A DNA stretch of 64,000 bases from Oculatellaceae cyanobacterium bins.114. GTDB lineage: Bacteria; Cyanobacteriota; Cyanobacteriia; Elainellales; Elainellaceae. The notes beneath the pieces are model-generated. The model was given only the letters and a program-made list of their open reading frames with translations. It made no database searches and was not told the origin of the DNA. The stretch lies in the NCBI GenBank assembly GCA_033764315.1, contig JANRJA010000193.1, forward strand, positions 1-64,000, given 5' to 3'. This document shows, piece by piece, positions 2,141-64,000 of the stretch (position 1 is the stretch's first letter; every line of letters starts with the position of its first letter). The position numbers and the translations under genes are program-made.

Positions 2141-3193
2141 GTGACTGATTCATCGGACTTGCGAATGTCTGACTTGGGGGAACAAGGGCTGCTAAAACGA
2201 TTGCAGAGCTTTTGTCCCCCTGAGTTTGTGGGCGATGATGCTGCCCTGCTAACCGTGTCACCGGGGCGATCGCTCGTCGTGACAACTGATGTGTTGGTGG
2301 ATGGCGTACATTTTAGCGATCGCACAACTTCCGCGCTGGATGTGGGTTGGCGAGCCGCCGCCGCCAATCTCTCCGATCTGGCAGCAATGGGAGCAACTCC
2401 ATTAGGCATTACGGTTGGCTTGAGCATTCCGGGTGATCTTTCAGTTATTTGGATTGAGCAGCTCTATCAAGGATTGGTTGCCTGTTTACAGCCCTATCAA
2501 ACCCCAATTGTGGGTGGCGATATTTGCCGTTCTCAGGTGGTTACAGTCGCTATTACAGCTTTGGGACAGGTTGATCCTAGTCAAGTCATTCGCCGCAACG
2601 GTGCCCACCCTGGAGATGCCATTTTGGTGACGGGGGTGCATGGAGCCTCTAGAGCCGGACTGGAGTTATTGCTGCATCCCCAACAAGGGCAAGAGTTAAC
2701 GGAGAGCGATTACCCCAAGAGGGGAACTGCTTCGCATCGCACCACATTAATTCAGGCTCATCAACGCCCCATTCCTCGACTAGACGTGATTCCCCTGTTG
2801 CATACTGCCTTTGCTGCTAAGGGAAATGAAGCCCCGTTTAGAGTCGGAGGCATGGACAGCAGCGATGGTTTAGCGGATGCTGTCTTGCAGATTTGCCGCG
2901 CTAGTGGAGTGGGTGCCTGTCTTGAACGCCACCAAATTCCCATGCCTGCTGCATTTCAGTCGTGGTTATCACCAGAGCAAGCGATCGAATGGGCATTGTA
3001 TGGGGGCGAAGACTTTGAACTGGTGCTCTGTCTACCAACAGCGATCGCCCACTCAGTTCAGGCAAAACTCGGTTCTCCAGCCGCGATCGTCGGCACGATT
3101 ACCGCCGATCCTCAGGTCGTCCTGCACGACTCCACGGGACTATACTCAAACGAGGTGCTCACTCTCAATCGAGGGTTTCAACACTTCTCGTAA
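2141..3193 (+). CDS. thiL: Thiamine-monophosphate kinase
   Basis: GDDAA, DVLVDGVHF, AAANLSDLAAMGA, MDSSDGL, GGEDFEL motifs; carries an in-frame 27-nt insertion at 2711-2737. Confidence 0.97.
   Translation: MTDSSDLRMSDLGEQGLLKRLQSFCPPEFVGDDAALLTVSPGRSLVVTTDVLVDGVHFSDRTTSALDVGWRAAAANLSDLAAMGATPLGITVGLSIPGDLSVIWIEQLYQGLVACLQPYQTPIVGGDICRSQVVTVAITALGQVDPSQVIRRNGAHPGDAILVTGVHGASRAGLELLLHPQQGQELTESDYPKRGTASHRTTLIQAHQRPIPRLDVIPLLHTAFAAKGNEAPFRVGGMDSSDGLADAVLQICRASGVGACLERHQIPMPAAFQSWLSPEQAIEWALYGGEDFELVLCLPTAIAHSVQAKLGSPAAIVGTITADPQVVLHDSTGLYSNEVLTLNRGFQHFS
2706..2740 (+). mobile_element. 27-nt small dispersed element inserted in a HIP1 site (copy 1, inside thiL)
   Basis: GCGAT|TACCCCAAGAGGGGAACTGCTTCGCAT|CGC; related 27-mers at 14547 and 51832. 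Confidence 0.8.
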
Positions 3194-14450: not shown

Positions 14451-14789
14451 ATGGAGCCAACCAGCCGAGCCTATCCGATGCGGGTGTTTGTAAAACATAG
14501 GGCAAAAGAACACATTAAGTCACTCACCTATGACATGCGTGGCGACTACTCCACCGGGGAAACGGCTTCGCATCGTCCTCTATATTCTCCGTTTGATGAA
14601 CGGTTGTTTGAAGACATTGCAGCAACGCTCCTATCGCCCAACCGTCCTGAATTTCGCCATCAATGCAAGTCTCGCCAAGAAGCAGCCGCGATCGAATCAC
14701 AAATCGCAGCAGAACTTGTAGATATCTATACTCAAATCAAGTTAAAACAGCGTGATCCATTGATTCAAATGCTTAATGCATTGCTATAG
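14451..14789 (+). CDS. Small hypothetical protein (start uncertain), carrying an in-frame 27-nt element
   Basis: Helical, protein-like C-terminal half (LFEDIAATLL...ELVDIYTQIK...LIQMLNALL). Confidence 0.6.
   Translation: MEPTSRAYPMRVFVKHRAKEHIKSLTYDMRGDYSTGETASHRPLYSPFDERLFEDIAATLLSPNRPEFRHQCKSRQEAAAIESQIAAELVDIYTQIKLKQRDPLIQMLNALL
14542..14576 (+). mobile_element. 27-nt HIP1-inserted element (copy 2, degenerate HIP1 flanks)
   Basis: GCGAC|TACTCCACCGGGGAAACGGCTTCGCAT|CGT. Confidence 0.7.
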
Positions 14790-22149: not shown

Positions 22150-22326
22150 CTAAATGTGAGCCTTTTTCAACAAATCTCGGATGAGGTTGTCTTTAATCAT
22201 TAACTGCTGGGCAGCCTCCATCAATTGGTAAATAACTTGATTGTGGTCTAAATCCTGAAACTCAAATTGCAGACGCTGAAACTCAAACTGCTGCTCCATC
22301 GTTAACTCAAATGCTTTCGGATCCAT
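22150..22326 (-). CDS. nblA: Phycobilisome degradation protein NblA (second copy, 58 aa; missed by the ORF track)
   Basis: Manual translation MDPKAFELTMEQQFEFQRLQFEFQDLDHNQVIYQLMEAAQQLMIKDNLIRDLLKKAHI; AGAGGA RBS. Confidence 0.9.
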   Translation of the reverse strand: MDPKAFELTMEQQFEFQRLQFEFQDLDHNQVIYQLMEAAQQLMIKDNLIRDLLKKAHI

Positions 22327-22339
22327 AAGTTCCTCTCTA

Positions 22340-22528
22340 TTAGCTAAGGGATTGCATCGGTGTAGTGCTGACCAAGTTACGGATAATGTTGTCTTTGAGC
22401 ATAAGTAGGCGTGAAGCTTGCACGAGCAAATTTAAAGCTTGCTCATGACTCAGTCCCTTGACTTCATCTTGCATACGCCGCATCTCAAACTGCTGTTCTA
22501 ATGTCAGCTCAAATGCTTTAGGTTCCAT
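22340..22528 (-). CDS. nblA: Phycobilisome degradation protein NblA (first copy, 62 aa)
   Basis: MEPKAFELTLEQQFEMRRMQDEVKGLSHEQALNLLVQASRLLMLKDNIIRNLV; AAGGAG RBS. Confidence 0.92.
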   Translation of the reverse strand: MEPKAFELTLEQQFEMRRMQDEVKGLSHEQALNLLVQASRLLMLKDNIIRNLVSTTPMQSLS

Positions 22529-22988
22529 AAGGTACTCCTTACTGAGTGAAATGTCTAGGTTGACGAGCTTGAAGATCGGCAAGTGTCGAAACATTTGAGA
22601 TCTTGATTGGCTAGTGATCCCTTGTTTGTTTTTAGGATTTCCCCAAAACTGGTAGAAAAACACTAGTTAGCATATTAAAAAAGATAACAATTGTTTGACA
22701 AACTGCCCATCCCCTTTGTGTGTACTCCGTTGGTTAGAAGATTCAGCCGTCGATCAATTCGTCCGGTAGATTTCCAGTATTTTGGCAAGTTACAAATTGT
22801 AAATATGTTCAAAATGGACTAAATATGTGTTATCGGACACAAGCTTTATATAAAATTCTCTTTTTGATGAAATTGCAACCCTAAAATCATGCGCTAGACT
22901 TGAAATTGGTAACTGATGCAAAGCATTTCCTCTTTGGGGGTTAATTGCTTTGAGCGACTACCACCTGTCCGAGACATCATTTCTGTGG

Positions 22989-23014: not shown

Positions 23015-23068
23015 GTTTTTTTAGCCGCTTATAAAGCATCTGTCTCTACTTAATTGGCCTTGGAGAAG

Positions 23069-23536
23069 ATGACTCATCCACTGATTCCTCAAATAGTTGA
23101 TTTAGCCGCTCCTGTGGCAGAAAACCTTGGTCTAGAGGTCGTTGGTGCAATATTCCACACCCATCAAAATCCACCGATTTTGCGCGTAGACATCCGCAAC
23201 CCTCATCAAGACACCGGTTTAGATGACTGTGAACGTATGAGCCATGCCCTAGAAGCAGCCCTAGATACAGTCGATATCATTCCAGATACTTATGTGCTTG
23301 AGGTTTCAAGCCCTGGAATTGATCGATTGCTCACAACTGATCGAGAATTTATCTCCTTTAAGGGTTTCTCAGTTACGGTCACAGCCAATGAACCCTACCA
23401 AGGACAAAAAGTATGGACGGGTCAACTCATTCGTCGCGATGAAGAGACGGTTCACTTAAATCAAAAGGGGCGATCGCTCGCAATTCCACGGCAGATTATC
23501 AACTCTGTGCAATTAAGCGATCGCCCCAAAGGGTAA
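23069..23536 (+). CDS. rimP: Ribosome maturation factor RimP
   Basis: [23 protein letters not shown]; first gene of the rimP-nusA-infB operon. Confidence 0.97.
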
Positions 23537-23652
23537 ACTGCTTTGCATCGCCACCCCTAAGGAATCTGTAAGCATTGCTGCTTAACTAAATAACTCCACA
23601 CGGCCCATCTCATTTCCAATCCGACAACTTAAGATTTTCAGAGGTTACTTCT

Positions 23653-29168: not shown

Positions 29169-31181
29169 CTAAAGAAACCGAATAAACGTTGGAGCATAGG
29201 GGATAATCTTCGGGTTATCCCCTCCGATTTGGTTAGTCCGAATAATCCACAATGCAGCTCCATGTTTCAACATAATGCTGCTGATTTCATCGTGGGCTCG
29301 ACGAGGCAACATGGTTCGCCAAGTAATAAAGCTTGCCAAGAGAGTCTTAAATAATCCAGAGCTTAAACCAGTCCCCGCTAGGGTCTCAGCATTTTTTTGC
29401 CAATCTCGGCGAGTAATGCCAAAAGGGATGAGATAGCTTTTTAGCGATCGCCCCAAACTAAGTAATTGTCGAAATCGAGTCGTTTGAGGATGGTGAGGAT
29501 GATCTCGTAACCAGTCTTGAATTTTAGGATTCGCAGCAATTTGCTGCTCTAGCCGCTCAATCGTTACATAAAGAGCTTGGTTAGAATCTTGAACGCATGA
29601 TTTGGCGGGAGTGACGATCGCGGCACCCGTTCCATCTCCTACTCGATATCGCGCCATCATGATATCCAACTGATTCATAAATTCCGTCAGGGGCGAGAGT
29701 CGAATGCCATCAAAGTCATAATCTCTCGTAATGACGTCGGATTTAATGAGGACGTCTGAAACGGGTCGGTTGCCGAGCCACCCTCGTTGCAAATCTCCCA
29801 GATAGTTCTCCCAAGCGATCGCCCCTGAGATGATGCCATCAGGATTTTGAGCATAAACCTGGCGATACTCAATTTGAAATTGCAATTCATTTGCCAACGG
29901 CTCTCGAATCACACGAGCAATGCCATAGGAAAAATGACCCGTTACGATTCCCAGGGGAGGAGATTCTCCTTGTTCTCCACCAATGCCACCATAGAGGTGA
30001 ATCACGATCGCCCGATCCCCTTCCTGCCATTTGTGTTGAGCCTCATCGGGTTGCGTTGCCACTGGATCGAGCAAGGCTCGCTTGACAGTTCCCTTATCCG
30101 ATCGAGTCCTTTTCCAATTGTGCCGTCTGATATAAGCTAGCCCTTTGCTTCCCAAGACCACTTCATCAGGCTGTAGCTGCATGGCAATGCGAGGCACAAT
30201 CGCTTGTACAACAAAAATCCCCTCATCGTTTTTAGCTCCATAGATGTACCAACCCTCTGCATTCAAGGGAGACATCTCTAAACCATGATTTGTAGACCGT
30301 GCTAAACCACTGCGATCGGGCACAACTTGAGGAATACAAATAACTTCTCGAAACCCATCAAATTGGCGCGATCGCACATTAAAATGACGAACCTCAAAAT
30401 AATCAGGGAAGCGACCTCCAATCGGTCTAATAACGCTAACCAATCCATAAAACCGTCCTGTTATTTGAACAGGCTCTTTAGCAATTGATAGACGATAATT
30501 GTGATTTTTTCCTGTTATTGACAAGTCTGTTGTTTCAACAACAACAGGTTCTCTGAGTTTGACAATTACATCATCCTGGGGTCGTGCTCCCGCTAGTGAC
30601 TCTAATGGCCCAACAAGAAGGCGATAATTTAAGCGATGAGGATGAACATTCCCCATCTTTTCTCCTGTTCGAGTTGTTGGAGTAAAGGCTACGTTTCGTG
30701 TAGTAATGCGAACATAGTTTTCTGTTTTAGCGAGTGCCAACCACTGCAATGGCAGAGTTTTACCTACTAAATGTTGATATGGTTTAGGGGCACAGTAAAT
30801 CTCAATCCATACAAAATCTTCTGATTGAAATGGTTGCTTAGCTGGCAAAATTAAACGCCCAATCCAGTTAGAAATAGGGCGATAAACGGTTGGAACAACA
30901 GCTTGCCCAATGGGATAAAAGCCGGTTTGATTAAAGAGTTCTTGACTATAAAAAGAATAATTTGAGGGTTGGCTTGTTGAGATTTTAAATCGATATTTTT
31001 TGTAAATAAATAATGCCAGAATACCGAACAACACAAGTAGGATGAATAGGGTCAAAAGACCATTTTTGCTTTCAAAAGGAAATTGAATTCCAAATAGGAG
31101 ATGACTCCAATAAGAGAAGTTCTTTGTATTGCCTAGATTGGTCTTGATTAAGCTCTCAAATATTAACTGGGATAAGCTCAC
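29169..31181 (-). CDS. Cyanobacterial membrane-anchored protein resembling the C-terminal domain of 'CAAX protease/abortive infection' fusion proteins
   Basis: YRPISNWIGRLILP, VGPLESLAGARP, HLYGGIGG, GHFSYG, SCVQDS, RTNQIGG motifs. Start moved to GTG 31181 to avoid overlap with the upstream gene (uncertain). Confidence 0.75.
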   Translation of the reverse strand: MSLSQLIFESLIKTNLGNTKNFSYWSHLLFGIQFPFESKNGLLTLFILLVLFGILALFIYKKYRFKISTSQPSNYSFYSQELFNQTGFYPIGQAVVPTVYRPISNWIGRLILPAKQPFQSEDFVWIEIYCAPKPYQHLVGKTLPLQWLALAKTENYVRITTRNVAFTPTTRTGEKMGNVHPHRLNYRLLVGPLESLAGARPQDDVIVKLREPVVVETTDLSITGKNHNYRLSIAKEPVQITGRFYGLVSVIRPIGGRFPDYFEVRHFNVRSRQFDGFREVICIPQVVPDRSGLARSTNHGLEMSPLNAEGWYIYGAKNDEGIFVVQAIVPRIAMQLQPDEVVLGSKGLAYIRRHNWKRTRSDKGTVKRALLDPVATQPDEAQHKWQEGDRAIVIHLYGGIGGEQGESPPLGIVTGHFSYGIARVIREPLANELQFQIEYRQVYAQNPDGIISGAIAWENYLGDLQRGWLGNRPVSDVLIKSDVITRDYDFDGIRLSPLTEFMNQLDIMMARYRVGDGTGAAIVTPAKSCVQDSNQALYVTIERLEQQIAANPKIQDWLRDHPHHPQTTRFRQLLSLGRSLKSYLIPFGITRRDWQKNAETLAGTGLSSGLFKTLLASFITWRTMLPRRAHDEISSIMLKHGAALWIIRTNQIGGDNPKIIPYAPTFIRFL

Positions 31182-51140: not shown

Positions 51141-51782
51141 TTACTTTGCTCGTCCAACAGTTTTAGCAGGCACGATATTGAGCAGAGCACCTGGTTTACC
51201 GGGGACTGCACCTTGAATGAGTAGAAGGTTGCGTTCAGCATCTACCCTCACCACTTTCAACTTGCGAATCGTCACTCGACTTCCGCCAAGCCGACCTGCC
51301 ATTCTTTTACCGGGATATACCCGACCCGGAGTCGTTCCCGCTCCTGTAGAACCAGGCAAGCGGTGGTTCTTAGAACCGTGTGCCATAGGTCCTCGTTTGA
51401 AATTGTGGCGTTTCTGATAACCAGCAAAGCCACGACCGATGCTGGTTCCAATTACATCTACAATTTGACCTGATGCAAAGGCATCAGCCTTGATTTGCTG
51501 ACCTAGCTCAAATCCATCCACACTCTCAAGACGGTATTCTTGCAAATGGCGCAGAGGCGAAGCTTGCGATTTTGCCAAATGACCCAACTCAGGCTTACTT
51601 AAAGCTTTTGTTGACGCTTCACCGTAACCCACTTGAACCGCAGAATAACCATCTGTCTGAGGAGTTTTGATTTGAGTGACAGTGCATGGACCCGCATGAA
51701 TGACGGTTACAGGAATTGCCCTACCTGATTCGTCAAACACTTGAGTCATTCCGAGTTTTGTGCCGAGAATGCCAACGGACAC
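51141..51782 (-). CDS. rplC: 50S ribosomal protein L3
   Basis: GTKLGMTQ...GPMAHGS...GKRMAG; GTG start at 51782 with a GGAG RBS. Confidence 0.98.
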
Positions 51783-51826
51783 GATCACAGTCTCCCTTAC
51801 TTTACACATCAAAAATGAGCAAGGTT

Positions 51827-51861
51827 GCGATTACCCTAGAAGGGAAAGTGCTTCGCATCGC
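51827..51861 (+). mobile_element. 27-nt HIP1-inserted element (copy 3, rplC leader)
   Basis: GCGAT|TACCCTAGAAGGGAAAGTGCTTCGCAT|CGC. Confidence 0.8.
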
Positions 51862-53505: not shown

Positions 53506-54777
53506 GTGACTAACTTGTACTACCCCTTACGATCCCTAAGGGAGGGTAACTGGTTCAAACTGATTTGCGGAGCTAGTTTTCAGCACCTCCCTGCCGTTCG
53601 GAATCTCACTTTAGCGTATGCATTGGCTGGCGTTGACTGTATTGACGTAGCTGCGGATGCTGCTGTCATTTCATCTGCTCGCGAGGCGTTGAGTGTTGCA
53701 GATGGGCTGCGGGATGCTGCTCAAGCACGAGGGTATGACGCTCAAGGAGCACCTTGGTTAATGGTCAGTCTTAATGATGGAGAAGATCCTCATTTTCGCA
53801 AGGCTGAGTTTGATGCGGGGCAATGTCCTGTTGACTGCCCTCGTCCCTGTGAAACGATTTGTCCGGCACAAGCGATCGCCTTTGAGCACGATAGTCGCAA
53901 TGACATTGATGAGCATCGCTCAGGGGTGATTGATAGTCGTTGTTATGGGTGTGGTCGTTGTTTATTAGTCTGCCCATTTGAGCGCATTACGACCCGTTCT
54001 TATGTTTCAAGCCCAACCGCGATCGCCTCGACCGTGCTGCAAGGCATTGATGCCGTTGAGATTCATACGCAAGTTGGTCGCTTAACTGATTTTGAGCGAT
54101 TGTGGGGTGCGATCGCCCCTCATGTCTCACAACTCCAGCTAGTTGCGGTGAGTTGTCCAGATGGGGATGGATTAATTGATTATCTCAAGTCAATCTATCA
54201 GCTGATTTCACCAATTGCATGTCCTGTAATCTGGCAGACCGACGGTAGACCCATGAGCGGTGATATTGGGGATGGTGCCACCCATGCGGCTGTGAGATTA
54301 GGGCAAAAAGTATTGGCAGCAAACTTGCCAGGATATGTGCAATTAGCAGGTGGAACCAATCGTTATACGGTTAAAAAATTGAGGGCACTTGGATTGCTAA
54401 ATTCAAAAGCACTGCACCACAAACCAACAATTGCTCAGAATTCATCACATCACCCTCCTATAGCGCGATCGCCCCATAGAGAGAACGACTTCACATCGCC
54501 CCACTACATTTCTGGCGTTGCCTATGGTAGCTATGCCCGTGCACTGTTGTCACCCGTTTTAGAGCAGCTCGAACCATCTCATTTCGACCCTAGTTTCAAC
54601 CGCTTTAACGATATTAACGACCTCATTGGCGACTTTTCTTCCTCCCATCCTCTGGGTCAATTTAACCCCCACTTGGAATGTCACCCCCCTCTGCTGTGGC
54701 AAGCAGTTGAGCTAGCTCACTCTCTTGTATCCCAACTTAAATCTCCTAAACATCAGGAGCAGGTCATGTCAACCTAA
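53506..54777 (+). CDS. ldpA: Circadian input Fe-S protein LdpA
   Basis: WFKLICGASF, DGEDPHFRKA, two 4Fe-4S motifs (CPVDCPRPCETICP; CYGCGRCLLVCP), WQTDGRPMSGDIG, QLAGGTN. Confidence 0.95.
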   Translation: MTNLYYPLRSLREGNWFKLICGASFQHLPAVRNLTLAYALAGVDCIDVAADAAVISSAREALSVADGLRDAAQARGYDAQGAPWLMVSLNDGEDPHFRKAEFDAGQCPVDCPRPCETICPAQAIAFEHDSRNDIDEHRSGVIDSRCYGCGRCLLVCPFERITTRSYVSSPTAIASTVLQGIDAVEIHTQVGRLTDFERLWGAIAPHVSQLQLVAVSCPDGDGLIDYLKSIYQLISPIACPVIWQTDGRPMSGDIGDGATHAAVRLGQKVLAANLPGYVQLAGGTNRYTVKKLRALGLLNSKALHHKPTIAQNSSHHPPIARSPHRENDFTSPHYISGVAYGSYARALLSPVLEQLEPSHFDPSFNRFNDINDLIGDFSSSHPLGQFNPHLECHPPLLWQAVELAHSLVSQLKSPKHQEQVMST

Positions 54778-60810: not shown

Positions 60811-61518
60811 TTAGTTTAAGAAGGGTTGTTCAGCAAGGGTATCTAACCCAACTGATCTCAGTAGCGTGGTCCACTGAGTGGCAATTTCAGGATTACGGGG
60901 TTGAGTTTGGCGCAGATTTGCCATACTGTTTAACGCGTCATACCAGATTCCGGCTTGAGCATAAACCCTGGGGCGATCGCCTTCTGCGGTTGCTGCCAAC
61001 TGACTCGTTAAGGTGGTAGGAGGCGCAATCCGCTGAATCCACCCTTCCGAAAAAATATCCCCAGAGCGATCGTCAGGATCACATATCAGCGAGAAATACC
61101 AATGGTAATCTTTGCCAATTTCAAGATCAGGCGCGTTTGCTTGATCCTTCAGTGAAAACGCCATAATTCCAGGGTCGCCACTGAGTTGAAACGTGCTGCG
61201 ATAGACCTCATTGTCCTCCGCATCTAACAGCACAAACTCTGCTAGTGGACTGGCTGTTGGAGGGACATTCCAATAAAAGGTAGGACGGGCTTCTAACGTA
61301 GTCCCAAAATTTGTACTCGGAATCAAAGCAATCAGTGGTGGCTCACCTCGGAGGCAATTGCCACGAGTGCCGCCCCCTTCTCGTCGTCCTGGGGCTCCCC
61401 GATCCGGTGGGACATACTCTTGAGCGAGTGCCGCCAAGGGGAAGCCACCGCTCAACAATACAATCGATAACAGCAGATGCAAGGCAATCTGGAGATTGCG
61501 AGAAAAACGATGAGACAT
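60811..61518 (-). CDS. DUF928-domain exported protein
   Basis: Signal peptide, PGRREGGGTRG.C, PTFYW, YHWYFSLIC, GWIQR, GIWYDAL, W..LL.SVGL. Confidence 0.9.
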   Translation of the reverse strand: MSHRFSRNLQIALHLLLSIVLLSGGFPLAALAQEYVPPDRGAPGRREGGGTRGNCLRGEPPLIALIPSTNFGTTLEARPTFYWNVPPTASPLAEFVLLDAEDNEVYRSTFQLSGDPGIMAFSLKDQANAPDLEIGKDYHWYFSLICDPDDRSGDIFSEGWIQRIAPPTTLTSQLAATAEGDRPRVYAQAGIWYDALNSMANLRQTQPRNPEIATQWTTLLRSVGLDTLAEQPFLN

Positions 61519-61567
61519 GACGATTTCAAGAGGGCGAATGGTTCAACGAGCTTAAACCGATCTAAAA

Positions 61568-62353
61568 CTACTGTCCCAAATTGATGGTCTGATTGCTCTG
61601 GCTCAGATTGACGCGCTCAATGGGGGTTTCGCGAGTAATGTGAACCAAACCTACTGAATTCAATAAATTAACCCATTGAGAAGCAGGAACCGGACCACCT
61701 GTTTGAGAACGGAGTGTTGCAAGACTACTGATGGCATCGTACCAGATTCCTTGTTGTGCATAGATACTTGGGCGTTGCTCTAAGCTTGCCTGCTGTAACT
61801 CCGACTGCAAAGTTGCACTGGGTTCAATGCGTTGGATCCAACTATCTACTACAACATCAGCTGAGCGATCGCTCATTTCGCAAACTAACGCAAAACTCCA
61901 GTGATAATTTTTACCGACCTCTAACGCCGGTAGATTGGCATTGGCAGGCAAACTGAGACTGATAACCCCTGACGTTCTGGTTGTCTGGAAGGTTGCTTTA
62001 TATAACTCGTTGTCTGATTCATCACTCAAAATAAATTCAGCCGCAACCGCATTCTCAGCGTAGAACTGTGGTACGTAAACAAAAAAGGAGGGGTAATCGG
62101 TCGAGGTATAACCAAAATTTTGGTCAGGCACCAGAGCGGTCAAGCGATCGTTAGATGAGATGGTAGTATCGCTGCGCCAGCATCCACGAGTACCCCCTCC
62201 TTCTCGGCGACCAGGTAAGCCGATATCTGCTGGAGGGTTGTAAGTCTGGGCGATCGCAGCCAGTGGCAAACCACCCAACAGCGTTCCTGCGATGAGTGCG
62301 ACGTGTAAGGCTACACGATAGGGAGGCATTAAAGGAGGGATAAGTCGAGACAT
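61568..62353 (-). CDS. DUF928-domain exported protein (paralog)
   Basis: PGRREGGGTRGC, PSFFVYVP, YHWSFALVC, WIQR, GIWYDAI, W..LLNSVGL. Confidence 0.9.
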   Translation of the reverse strand: MSRLIPPLMPPYRVALHVALIAGTLLGGLPLAAIAQTYNPPADIGLPGRREGGGTRGCWRSDTTISSNDRLTALVPDQNFGYTSTDYPSFFVYVPQFYAENAVAAEFILSDESDNELYKATFQTTRTSGVISLSLPANANLPALEVGKNYHWSFALVCEMSDRSADVVVDSWIQRIEPSATLQSELQQASLEQRPSIYAQQGIWYDAISSLATLRSQTGGPVPASQWVNLLNSVGLVHITRETPIERVNLSQSNQTINLGQ

Positions 62354-62403
62354 ACTAAGTTGATCCTTGGTGATTGATGTAGATCTGCGAAAGGGAAAGC
62401 GTT

Positions 62404-62530
62404 TATAGCACCTGAAGAATTGGTTAAAACGGGGTGCAGGGGCTTGCGTTCAAGATTCGCCTGAGTTCACGCCGAAGTCCAAACGGTGGAACCCTTAACC
62501 CTTGCATCAACGGTCTTGAAAGTTGCTATA
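62404..62530. mobile_element. About 127-bp MITE-like element
   Basis: Inverted ends TATAGCACCT / AGTTGCTATA; internal GGGGTGCAGGGG...CCCTTGCATC stem and a CTGAG...GCCGAAGTC repeat. Confidence 0.55.
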
Positions 62531-62693
62531 TGAGTCTGATCACTCATCATGGTGGTGATTTAGGATGACGCAGGTGGTGCTCACTCAGCCCCAATGGATT
62601 TAATGCTGATGGGCGATCGCTCTAAAACAACGCTTAGGCAATGGCATAAAAAGTAACCAGGATGAACACAAATTAGTAGATGTCCCTACGGAT

Positions 62694-64000
62694 CTATAGA
62701 TTCACTGAGTTTGCTTTTGTTTCCGCTTCAAATGAGGAACTTTCTAGCTCATTTTCAAGCATGTAATGAGAAATCTGAATTGAGGTAGCTGGCATGTGGG
62801 ATATCACCCGATAAACATTCACCAATTGTTGTTTGCCTTTCAGGGCCATCGGTCCCCAGGACTCAACTTGAAAGGCGTTTTGTAAGTAATCTAGCGTCTC
62901 TTGCGCAATCAACACTCGGCACACATCGGTTTGCCTATCTTTGGCACAGCTCTCTAAACGAGAGGCCGTATTGACACTATCGCCAATCACCCCATATTCC
63001 ATTCGATCTTTGCCACCGAGACTGCCCACAACAATCTCACCGGTAAAGATACCCACTCGCATTTGCACAGGTTTTAAGCCCCGTTGTTGCCAAGCTTGAT
63101 TGAGTTGATGGAGGCGATCGCCCATCGCTAACGCACACGCCACCGCTTGATAAGCATCTTGAGCAATTTCTGCATCATTGACCCGTGGAATCGGCACCCC
63201 AAACACAGCAAGTAAGCCGTCTCCTGTAAATTTATTGACAATGCCGTGCTGTCGTTGAATCTCTTGCGTCATAGCCTCCAGATATTCATTGAGCCAATCC
63301 AGCAGGGCTTCAGGTGACATCTGTTCTGAAACCGTGCTGAAGTCTTTAATATCGGTAAACAACATGGTGGCAACCAATTTTTGCCCCGGCAATTTGCCCG
63401 ATTGTAAGAGGCGATCGCGAGCTGCCCAGAGCGCATTCGCAATTTCTGGAGAGGTATTTTGCCCCAACAGGGTCATGACCATTTGTTGTTGACGCTGAGA
63501 CTGTTGGGCTCGATAGGTCAACATCGTTCCTGCTGAAGCCAGCATTCCCACCATCGGAGCGACCAAAGGCACCCACCCCTGACACATCAAGATGGCAAAA
63601 CATGTCCCTGATAACAACAACGATAACCGCAGAATGCCAAAACCCAGATTAATGGGATGACGCACATGCCATACAAGAGCACTCCCGGCGATCGCCCATG
63701 AAACGATCCACAAACTCTCTGCCCACTCTGCCCAAAACCACATCAAAGGACGTTGATCCATCGACGCACTGAGAATCTGACTGACATTTTGAGCATGGAT
63801 CGCCACCCCAGCCATTTGGTGGTTTCGTTCTGCACTGGCACTAAAAGGGGTATAAAATAGATCCTTGCCGCTGACAGCGGTGGTACCAATCAAAATAATT
63901 TTGTCTCTCACCCAGCTTGGGTCAAAGTCGTTGTGCAACACCTGAGTCAAGGTAATCTGTCGGGCAATGTTTTGGCTAGAGCGGTAGTTGAGTAAGACCT
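62694..64000 (-). CDS. CHASE2-domain class III adenylate/guanylate cyclase (5' end outside the window)
   Basis: CHASE2 C-terminus (KIILIG...D.F.TP...GVAIHAQ), three TM helices, cyclase motifs LFTDIKDF, NKFTGDG, IGDSVNTASRLES. Confidence 0.93.
   Translation of the reverse strand, partial: VLLNYRSSQNIARQITLTQVLHNDFDPSWVRDKIILIGTTAVSGKDLFYTPFSASAERNHQMAGVAIHAQNVSQILSASMDQRPLMWFWAEWAESLWIVSWAIAGSALVWHVRHPINLGFGILRLSLLLSGTCFAILMCQGWVPLVAPMVGMLASAGTMLTYRAQQSQRQQQMVMTLLGQNTSPEIANALWAARDRLLQSGKLPGQKLVATMLFTDIKDFSTVSEQMSPEALLDWLNEYLEAMTQEIQRQHGIVNKFTGDGLLAVFGVPIPRVNDAEIAQDAYQAVACALAMGDRLHQLNQAWQQRGLKPVQMRVGIFTGEIVVGSLGGKDRMEYGVIGDSVNTASRLESCAKDRQTDVCRVLIAQETLDYLQNAFQVESWGPMALKGKQQLVNVYRVISHMPATSIQISHYMLENELESSSFEAETKANSVNL

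Follow-up and report, generated by a model that had tools for sequence, protein, structure and literature searches.

The closest systems so far described for the element studied here are the small dispersed repeats (SDRs) of cyanobacteria. SDR5, one of those of Nostoc punctiforme and its relatives (Elhai et al. 2008, Genome Res 18:1484), is presented in citing papers as a 21-nt repeat that a few heterocystous cyanobacteria carry in association with the palindromic octamer HIP1 (PMC13756078), with an insertion point between HIP1 bases 3 and 4 (PMC4390886). According to Xu et al. 2018, SDR-like repeats were not found outside Nostocaceae (PMC5861425). How SDRs move has, in these accounts, been an open question since 2008, and what HIP1 does has been one for three decades (PMC5861425, PMC13756078). 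We analyzed the first 64,000 nucleotides of contig JANRJA010000193.1 from Oculatellaceae cyanobacterium bins.114 (assembly GCA_033764315.1; this whole stretch is hereafter the window), which carry a dispersed, sharply bounded family of 27-nt sequences confined to HIP1 sites. The 27-mer is an element of the SDR kind outside the published Nostocaceae host range, and the literature searched, a body of work that mostly excludes subscription journals, yielded no account of a repeat that splits HIP1 in hosts other than Nostocaceae. On balance, we favor the reading that the family is a micro-element of the SDR kind that targets HIP1, is non-autonomous, and is moved in trans.

A sequence-only reading of the window had reported a family of three copies, each splitting HIP1 at GCGAT|CGC. 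The three sequences are indeed present on the plus strand at the positions it gave, but the count was too low, as the window holds five solid copies and one probable relic, and the split was worded correctly for copies 1 and 3 but not for copy 2. Copy 1 (2706..2740) consists of GCGAT, the 27-nt element (2711-2737), and CGC, and lies in frame in thiL, to which it adds YPKRGTASH. Copy 3 (51827..51861, element at 51832-51858) has the same GCGAT and CGC flanks and is intergenic. Copy 2 (14542..14576, element at 14547-14573) is flanked by GCGAC and CGT, that is, by a HIP1 site with two transitions, and reads in frame (YSTGETASH) in an orphan open reading frame (ORF) at 14451-14789. Copies 4 and 5, also on the plus strand, were added by an unbiased repeat search of the window. 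Both are diverged: copy 4 (23517..23551), at the 3′ end of rimP, has 80% identity to copy 1, and copy 5 (54465..54499), in frame in ldpA, has 71% identity.

The pattern TAC-N15-GCTTCGCAT matched the window exactly three times compared to 0.01 matches expected, a count reached in none of 100 shuffles; with two mismatches allowed, the five matches found were at chance level (4.39 expected). The nonamer GCTTCGCAT alone also occurs three times in the window, in every case within copies 1 to 3. A covariance model of the element, trained on 17 copies, was used to search the window with its filters off. The five copies scored 42 to 57 bits (56.9 for copy 1, 52.4 for copy 3, 48.6 for copy 4, and 42.2 for copy 5), all five being training sequences of the model. 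The sole match that was not a training sequence scored 20 bits (E=0.011) over model positions 8-33; it lies on the minus strand at 22915-22939, has no intact HIP1 halves, and is probably a decayed relic of the 27-nt element. A weak candidate from the repeat search, at 31098-31132, was ruled out at 7.8 bits (E=7) under the same model.

The target of the element is a frequent one, with 79 HIP1 sites (GCGATCGC) in the window versus 0.77 expected. All five solid copies stand between GCGAT or GCGAC on the left and CGC or CGT on the right, and deletion of the 27 nt restores a perfect GCGATCGC in four of them. When the 17 copies were aligned with 25 nt of flank on either side, the information per column was 1.2-2.0 bits from GCGAT through CGC and fell to about 0.1 bit immediately outside. 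The flank base left free by the genome-scan pattern described below was C in eight of the ten cyanobacterial loci listed by that scan, while the HIP1 flanks have decayed in the relic at 22915-22939 and in a copy from Kovacikia. Since AT stands at both junctions, insertion points at 3|4, 4|5, and 5|6 of HIP1 are equally compatible with the data, and the insertion can alternatively be described as a 25-nt element plus a 2-nt duplication of AT. In copies 4 and 5, CGC replaces the initial TAC, so that a perfect GCGATCGC is rebuilt at the left junction (23517-23524 and 54465-54472); this change fits either the directional making or keeping of HIP1 sites or a CGC subfamily. Copy 2 and a copy in another genome (L045:401-432) lie in unrelated genes, yet both begin with TACTCC and are flanked by GCGAC...CGT. 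The two may form one subfamily, but their flank changes affect the third base of Asp and Arg codons, for which independent synonymous drift is a sufficient explanation.

The clearest evidence for insertion comes from thiL, the thiamine-phosphate kinase gene at 2141..3193 on the plus strand, which was identified by family search and homologs and encodes 350 residues. Here, the translation reads ...SD-YPKRGTASH-R..., and the proposal that the insert extends a D-R HIP1 site to DYPKRGTASHR without breaking the frame proved right. The nine residues are missing in all 16 aligned ThiL orthologs, in which the flanking D/E-R is retained. Among 120 listed ThiL homologs, 109 have an empty 18-residue spacer, four have other inserts, and six fall outside the regular expression used; YPKRGTASH occurs in the window protein only and in none of the 119 others. 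The site is also empty in the nearest ThiL homolog, that of Oscillatoria sp. FACHB-1407 (80% identity). Judged from these aligned proteins, the thiL copy inserted exactly nine codons in frame and is specific to this lineage. In an AlphaFold model of the protein (mean pLDDT 83.4), the insert occupies residues 191-199, in a loop ahead of the helix at 198-208, and residues 191-196 have a pLDDT below 50.

The same D|R position of ThiL (window 2708-2740) carries other inserts in other cyanobacteria (homologs P0018, P0023, P0048, and P0073), namely nine residues (SEAVLLSAD), 17 residues, 25 residues in Scytonema tolypothrichoides, and five tandem LSPSD units. With such unrelated inserts, the site appears to be a hot spot for insertion. 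Read at a 1-nt offset, the complement of the conserved core of the element would encode SEAV, which provides a lead at the protein level; a tblastn search of plasmids with the Scytonema insert gave no match. Two further homologs (P0016 and P0078) have tandem peptide expansions in the next variable loop (alignment columns 230-260), for instance of repeated PEPRRTKGD and NSKFKIQ units.

A second case was found in an SRAP-family protein of strain FACHB-471, to which the element adds YPKEGTASH. In a comparison with the first 60 of 150 listed representative homologs, 59 were gapped over all nine columns and one had an unrelated 5-residue stretch. By the same kind of protein alignment, the SRAP copy is a second, independent lineage-specific insertion of exactly nine codons. 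The history of copy 2 is different. Its host ORF (14451..14789, plus strand, 112 residues) has no Pfam family and a single homolog, in Oscillatoria sp. FACHB-1407, which is of equal length, is 84% identical, and carries SSQGGTASH at the same place. Copy 2, shared with FACHB-1407 in diverged form, is thus an older copy that predates the split, and no empty site is available for this ORF because the sole homolog also carries the copy. With one copy shared with the nearest relative and another, that in thiL, not shared, the insertions took place at different times.

The remaining window copies affect genes in other ways. The 3′ end of rimP (23054..23536, plus strand, with RimP domains) lies inside copy 4, which supplies the last four codons (RPKG) and the stop codon (23522-23536); with the 27 nt removed, the frame would end in ...SDRHP followed by a stop. 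Copy 5 is read in ldpA (53506..54777, plus strand, with LdpA domains) in a different frame from that of the thiL copy, giving RSPHRENDFTS, and lies in a linker so variable among homologs (17-75 residues) that no empty site can be defined. Copy 3 adjoins the 5′ end of a minus-strand ORF at 51141-51812, which from its translation appears to be rplC.

Among the 17 copies, long ORFs cover the element in several frames and read it in either direction. The sense frame that yields DYPxxGTASHR is used in ThiL, in ORF 14451-14789, in the SRAP protein, and in a CHASE2 protein; a second sense frame is used in the C-terminal tail of a D1-like Photo_RC protein and in an unassigned 199-residue ORF; and the third is that of LdpA. 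The element is read antisense between the two domains of a GH38 protein and ahead of region 2 of an annotated ECF sigma factor. A Pfam scan assigned families to five of ten host ORFs from other genomes. Copies in recognizable genes are 24 or 27 nt long: both 24-nt variants lie inside 237-residue ORFs with Pfam families, whereas the longest ORF covering the single 26-nt variant has just 66 residues. The D1-like copy, on plasmid pA of Kovacikia minuta (L119:18950-20059), lies past the end of the Pfam domain. The C-terminal tail of D1 is normally cleaved off, so this insert may never reach the mature protein. The view that the element adds peptides to core proteins is borne out by ThiL, LdpA, the RimP C terminus, SRAP, CHASE2, GH38, the D1 tail, and the ECF sigma factor.

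To place the family in other genomes, we used a scan with a variable-gap pattern, which gave at least 118 loci. Among the matches listed, at least ten loci were cyanobacterial, in six Leptolyngbyaceae-type genomes: the metagenome-assembled genomes (MAGs) RU_5_1, RM1_406_9, and SM1_4_3 of Leptolyngbyaceae, strains FACHB-471 and FACHB-502, and a Stenomitos MAG. The spacer was 15 nt long in seven of the ten cyanobacterial loci listed, 12 nt in two, and 14 nt in one, and the interior was conserved even where the pattern had not fixed it. Another 108 of the listed loci, with 110 matches and spacers of 6-24 nt, belonged to other phyla and were mostly GC-rich (median GC 0.64). The full C4/G4-AACT interior was present in none of the 33 printed matches from other phyla with spacers of 11-16 nt, although one Chloroflexota locus (L050) resembled the interior in part. 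The matches in other phyla are chance hits and serve as a negative control. The genome from which the window comes was not among the scan matches listed.

A BLAST search of plasmids (E<=10) returned 49 records, two of them cyanobacterial (Kovacikia minuta and Leptolyngbya sp. NIES-3755); the other 47 were weak (E=3-9) and came from Enterobacterales, a Haloarcula, and a Microvirga, with no Nostoc plasmid among the 49. Altogether, the element is present in at least eight other Leptolyngbyaceae-type genomes or plasmids. The named hosts are all non-heterocystous, the FACHB strains being unclassified in the NCBI taxonomy, and the nearest relative of the window is Oscillatoria sp. FACHB-1407. Bases 1-50000 of the N. 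punctiforme plasmid pNPUN01 contain 16 HIP1 sites but no repeated split-HIP1 insert and no match to the covariance model. The sequence-only reading had staked itself on further copies and on ThiL orthologs with an empty site; copies were found in other genomes and plasmids, and the empty site was found in the orthologs described above.

On the strand used in the sequence-only reading, the internal layout of the element, between GCGAT and CGC, is TA, a C4 arm, a hypervariable 4-nt center, a G4 arm, AACT, the invariant GCTTCGC, and AT. Its length is 27 nt in 14 of the 17 copies, 24 nt in two, and 26 nt in one. The center columns depart from the consensus in 27 of 67 cells compared with 23 of 181 in the other interior columns left unfixed by the pattern (Fisher p = 5e-6), and the 17 copies have 14 different center tetranucleotides. 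The most conserved block is GCTTCGC (mean majority fraction 0.97), a value partly imposed by the scan pattern for ten of the 17 copies. Its complement, GCGAAGC, is the sequence of the d(GCGAAGC) DNA mini-hairpin, which a review describes as nuclease-resistant, with a melting temperature of 76.5 °C that conventional thermodynamic models do not explain (PMC13037366). As such models miss the stability of GCGAAGC, a folding tool would not score the mini-hairpin. The GCGAAGC heptamer is not enriched in the window (12 occurrences versus 9.06 expected), and an Rfam scan of the entire window returned no families.

Under the reading we favor, a trans-acting, HIP1-directed enzyme would open the center of the palindrome, either with a break after base 3, 4, or 5 or with a 2-nt stagger that would leave AT duplicated on either side of a 25-nt element. 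The same enzyme would then join in an element copy, which is probably processed in single-stranded form. On the complementary strand, the d(GCGAAGC) mini-hairpin would stand beside the C4/G4 hairpin, and the two hairpin modules may act as handles. Subterminal hairpins are used by the IS200/IS605 and REP/RAYT systems, an arrangement that the two hairpins of the element recall. Selection would retain the copies that proteins tolerate, which would be those with multiple-of-three lengths in loops, linkers, and tails. The element had been called transposase-free, and in keeping with this, no transposase domain, and specifically no Y1/HUH transposase, was found among the 35 of 58 window ORFs that were scanned; the 23 ORFs outside the scan, between 35915 and 51812, read as a probable ribosomal-protein cluster.

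Several observations weigh against this reading or limit it. The hairpin arms had been claimed to co-vary. The arm sequences quoted for the three copies were accurate, but the co-variation lacks statistical support: on the 17 copies, the stem pairs in 79.4% of cells compared with 80.8% in column shuffles, with no double changes. The C4/G4 arms are simply conserved. A stem register slid by -1 pairs equally well (80.6%), and the CCCT/AGGG arms pair solely in a shifted register with a 3-nt loop. Nearest-neighbor folds of the single-stranded DNA are weak: of the ten strands folded, eight gave z between -0.6 and -2.0, and the two strands of copy 2 each gave +0.7. Within a single genome, the copies have different centers, so nothing indicates a recent expansion from a single master, and "recent" is itself a relative term for the thiL insertion, as the nearest relative is merely 80% identical in ThiL. 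Five of the six frames of the element are open, one being shut by a TAA at the junction, but this is not unusual (P = 0.31 in shuffles and 0.22 in random 27-mers) and gives no evidence of a special adaptation to coding regions. The strand split in the window, with five copies on the plus strand and one relic on the minus strand, is not significant, and the GC skew of the window tracks gene orientation and does not reveal the direction of replication. Copy numbers and host range taken from the genome scan are lower bounds. Neither a mobilizing enzyme nor a donor copy nor an intermediate of transposition was observed, and mobility itself is inferred from presence and absence at the protein level.

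A wider version of this idea, which we put forward tentatively and consider doubtful, would make HIP1 the target site for a class of ultra-small single-stranded DNA elements found throughout the phylum. These would be recognized through d(GCGAAGC) and moved by a host HIP1-centered nuclease or an HUH-type enzyme, and the Nostoc SDRs, the 27-mer, and the Nostocales inserts at the ThiL D|R site would belong to one system. If this were true, a phylum-wide system would keep writing short peptides into core proteins, and HIP1 would gain a concrete molecular role.

Of the alternatives to a mobile element, the one that survives best dispenses with dedicated transposition: breaks at HIP1 would be repaired by copying from an occupied HIP1 site, with the half-sites serving as microhomology and the element as a passenger. 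The conserved unit takes in the HIP1 halves and conservation stops exactly there, as this explanation would have it, and HIP1 is extremely frequent, as the 79 sites in 64 kb attest. The unrelated inserts at the D|R site in four other ThiL lineages suggest that HIP1 sites often break or slip, and Elhai 2015 ties HIP1 to site-specific recombination and directed cutting (PMC4390886). However, at 5 and 3 nt, the half-sites offer very little length for repair from a template, and if any insert could spread in this way, many families would be expected, whereas one family recurs in the window. The conserved interior with its hypervariable center further points to constraint on the element itself. We regard repair copying as unlikely.

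Less probable still, in our estimate, is a functional motif, either a protein-binding site or a structural DNA site, kept by selection for the benefit of the cell. The arms and GCTTCGC are strongly conserved across genomes, as such a motif would be, and mini-hairpin sequences occur at origins of replication and transcription according to a review (PMC13037366). The copies nevertheless lie in unrelated places, including coding sequence in both orientations, gene tails, and intergenic DNA; old copies decay, as at 23517, at 54465, and in the relic at 22915; and no Rfam family matches. The 27 nt might instead be the excision footprint of a larger HIP1-targeting transposon whose ends were joined with a variable junction, and the layout of a conserved left part, a variable center, and a conserved right part agrees with this. 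Transposon footprints usually vary in length, but 27 nt is fixed in 14 of 17 copies, which means that the center varies by substitution rather than by length. Moreover, no longer element with the ends GCGAT-TACCCC and GGGGAACTGCTTCGCAT-CGC was found in the window, in the 12 cyanobacterial loci with a copy, or in 50 kb of the Nostoc plasmid, and we consider a footprint very improbable. Chance or convergence at HIP1-flanked sequence has nothing in its favor but the shortness of the motif and can be dismissed, given three matches observed versus 0.01 expected, a pattern-free interior that is conserved in independent genomes, and the lack of the full interior in the 33 other-phyla matches described above.

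Two groups of neighboring genes in the window were also noted. The relic at 22915-22939 lies in the intergenic stretch between rimP and a pair of tandem nblA genes on the minus strand, at 22150-22326 and 22340-22663 (Pfam NblA, E=4e-14 and 2e-19); the 74-nt direct repeat D2 of the window is explained by this tandem pair. At 60814-63950, on the minus strand, two tandem DUF928 genes adjoin a CHASE2 adenylate/guanylate cyclase.

For the questions about SDRs and HIP1 raised at the outset, the 27-nt family offers a clean case, with a base-exact target, two pairs of empty and filled sites (ThiL and SRAP), and copies of different ages. Since its core is the complement of a very stable DNA mini-hairpin, a single-strand mechanism is directly testable. 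The copies described here show that essential proteins (ThiL, LdpA, RimP, and the tail of the D1 precursor) absorb nine-residue inserts from such elements, and inserts of this kind matter for annotation and for the reading of indels in cyanobacterial alignments.

Among known systems, miniature inverted-repeat transposable elements (MITEs) resemble the 27-mer in being non-autonomous and dispersed, possibly with a 2-nt target duplication (AT). The 27-mer differs from them in having no terminal inverted repeats beyond TA/AT and in its size, as a typical MITE is several-fold longer than 27 nt. Like IS200/IS605 and REP/RAYT elements, the 27-mer is short, non-coding, capable of forming hairpins, and probably moved in trans, and it has a fixed short target and no long target duplication. 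A mini-element derived from IS200/IS605 would be expected to have subterminal hairpins at both ends, to insert 3′ of a fixed 4-5 nt, and to show a lagging-strand bias; the 27-mer has two modules that could each form a hairpin, and the flank on its left is constant (GCGAT). A REP/RAYT-style explanation for SDRs is raised by the authors of the REPIN work (PMC3116915). Compared with REP and REPIN sequences, the 27-mer is far smaller, is a single unit and not an inverted doublet, and is often found inside genes, whereas REPs are extragenic. SDR5 and the 27-mer can be set side by side through the descriptions in citing papers: both are tiny, non-coding, and inserted inside HIP1, and the 3|4 insertion point of SDR5 is one of three that fit the 27-mer equally well, as AT stands at both of its junctions. 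They differ in length, 21 nt for SDR5 versus 27 nt (variants of 24 and 26 nt), and in hosts, which are Nostocaceae for SDR5 versus non-heterocystous cyanobacteria of the Leptolyngbyaceae type. In the abstract of Elhai et al. 2008, SDR4, SDR5, and SDR6 are said to share a hairpin backed by compensatory mutations, whereas the 27-mer has a C4/G4 hairpin that can be drawn but no pair changed on both sides. The same abstract reportedly gives SDRs a length of 21-27 nt. In the broad sense of the term, the 27-mer fits among the small dispersed repeats, being dispersed, within the 21-27 nt range, and present in some lineages and absent from others at thiL and SRAP.

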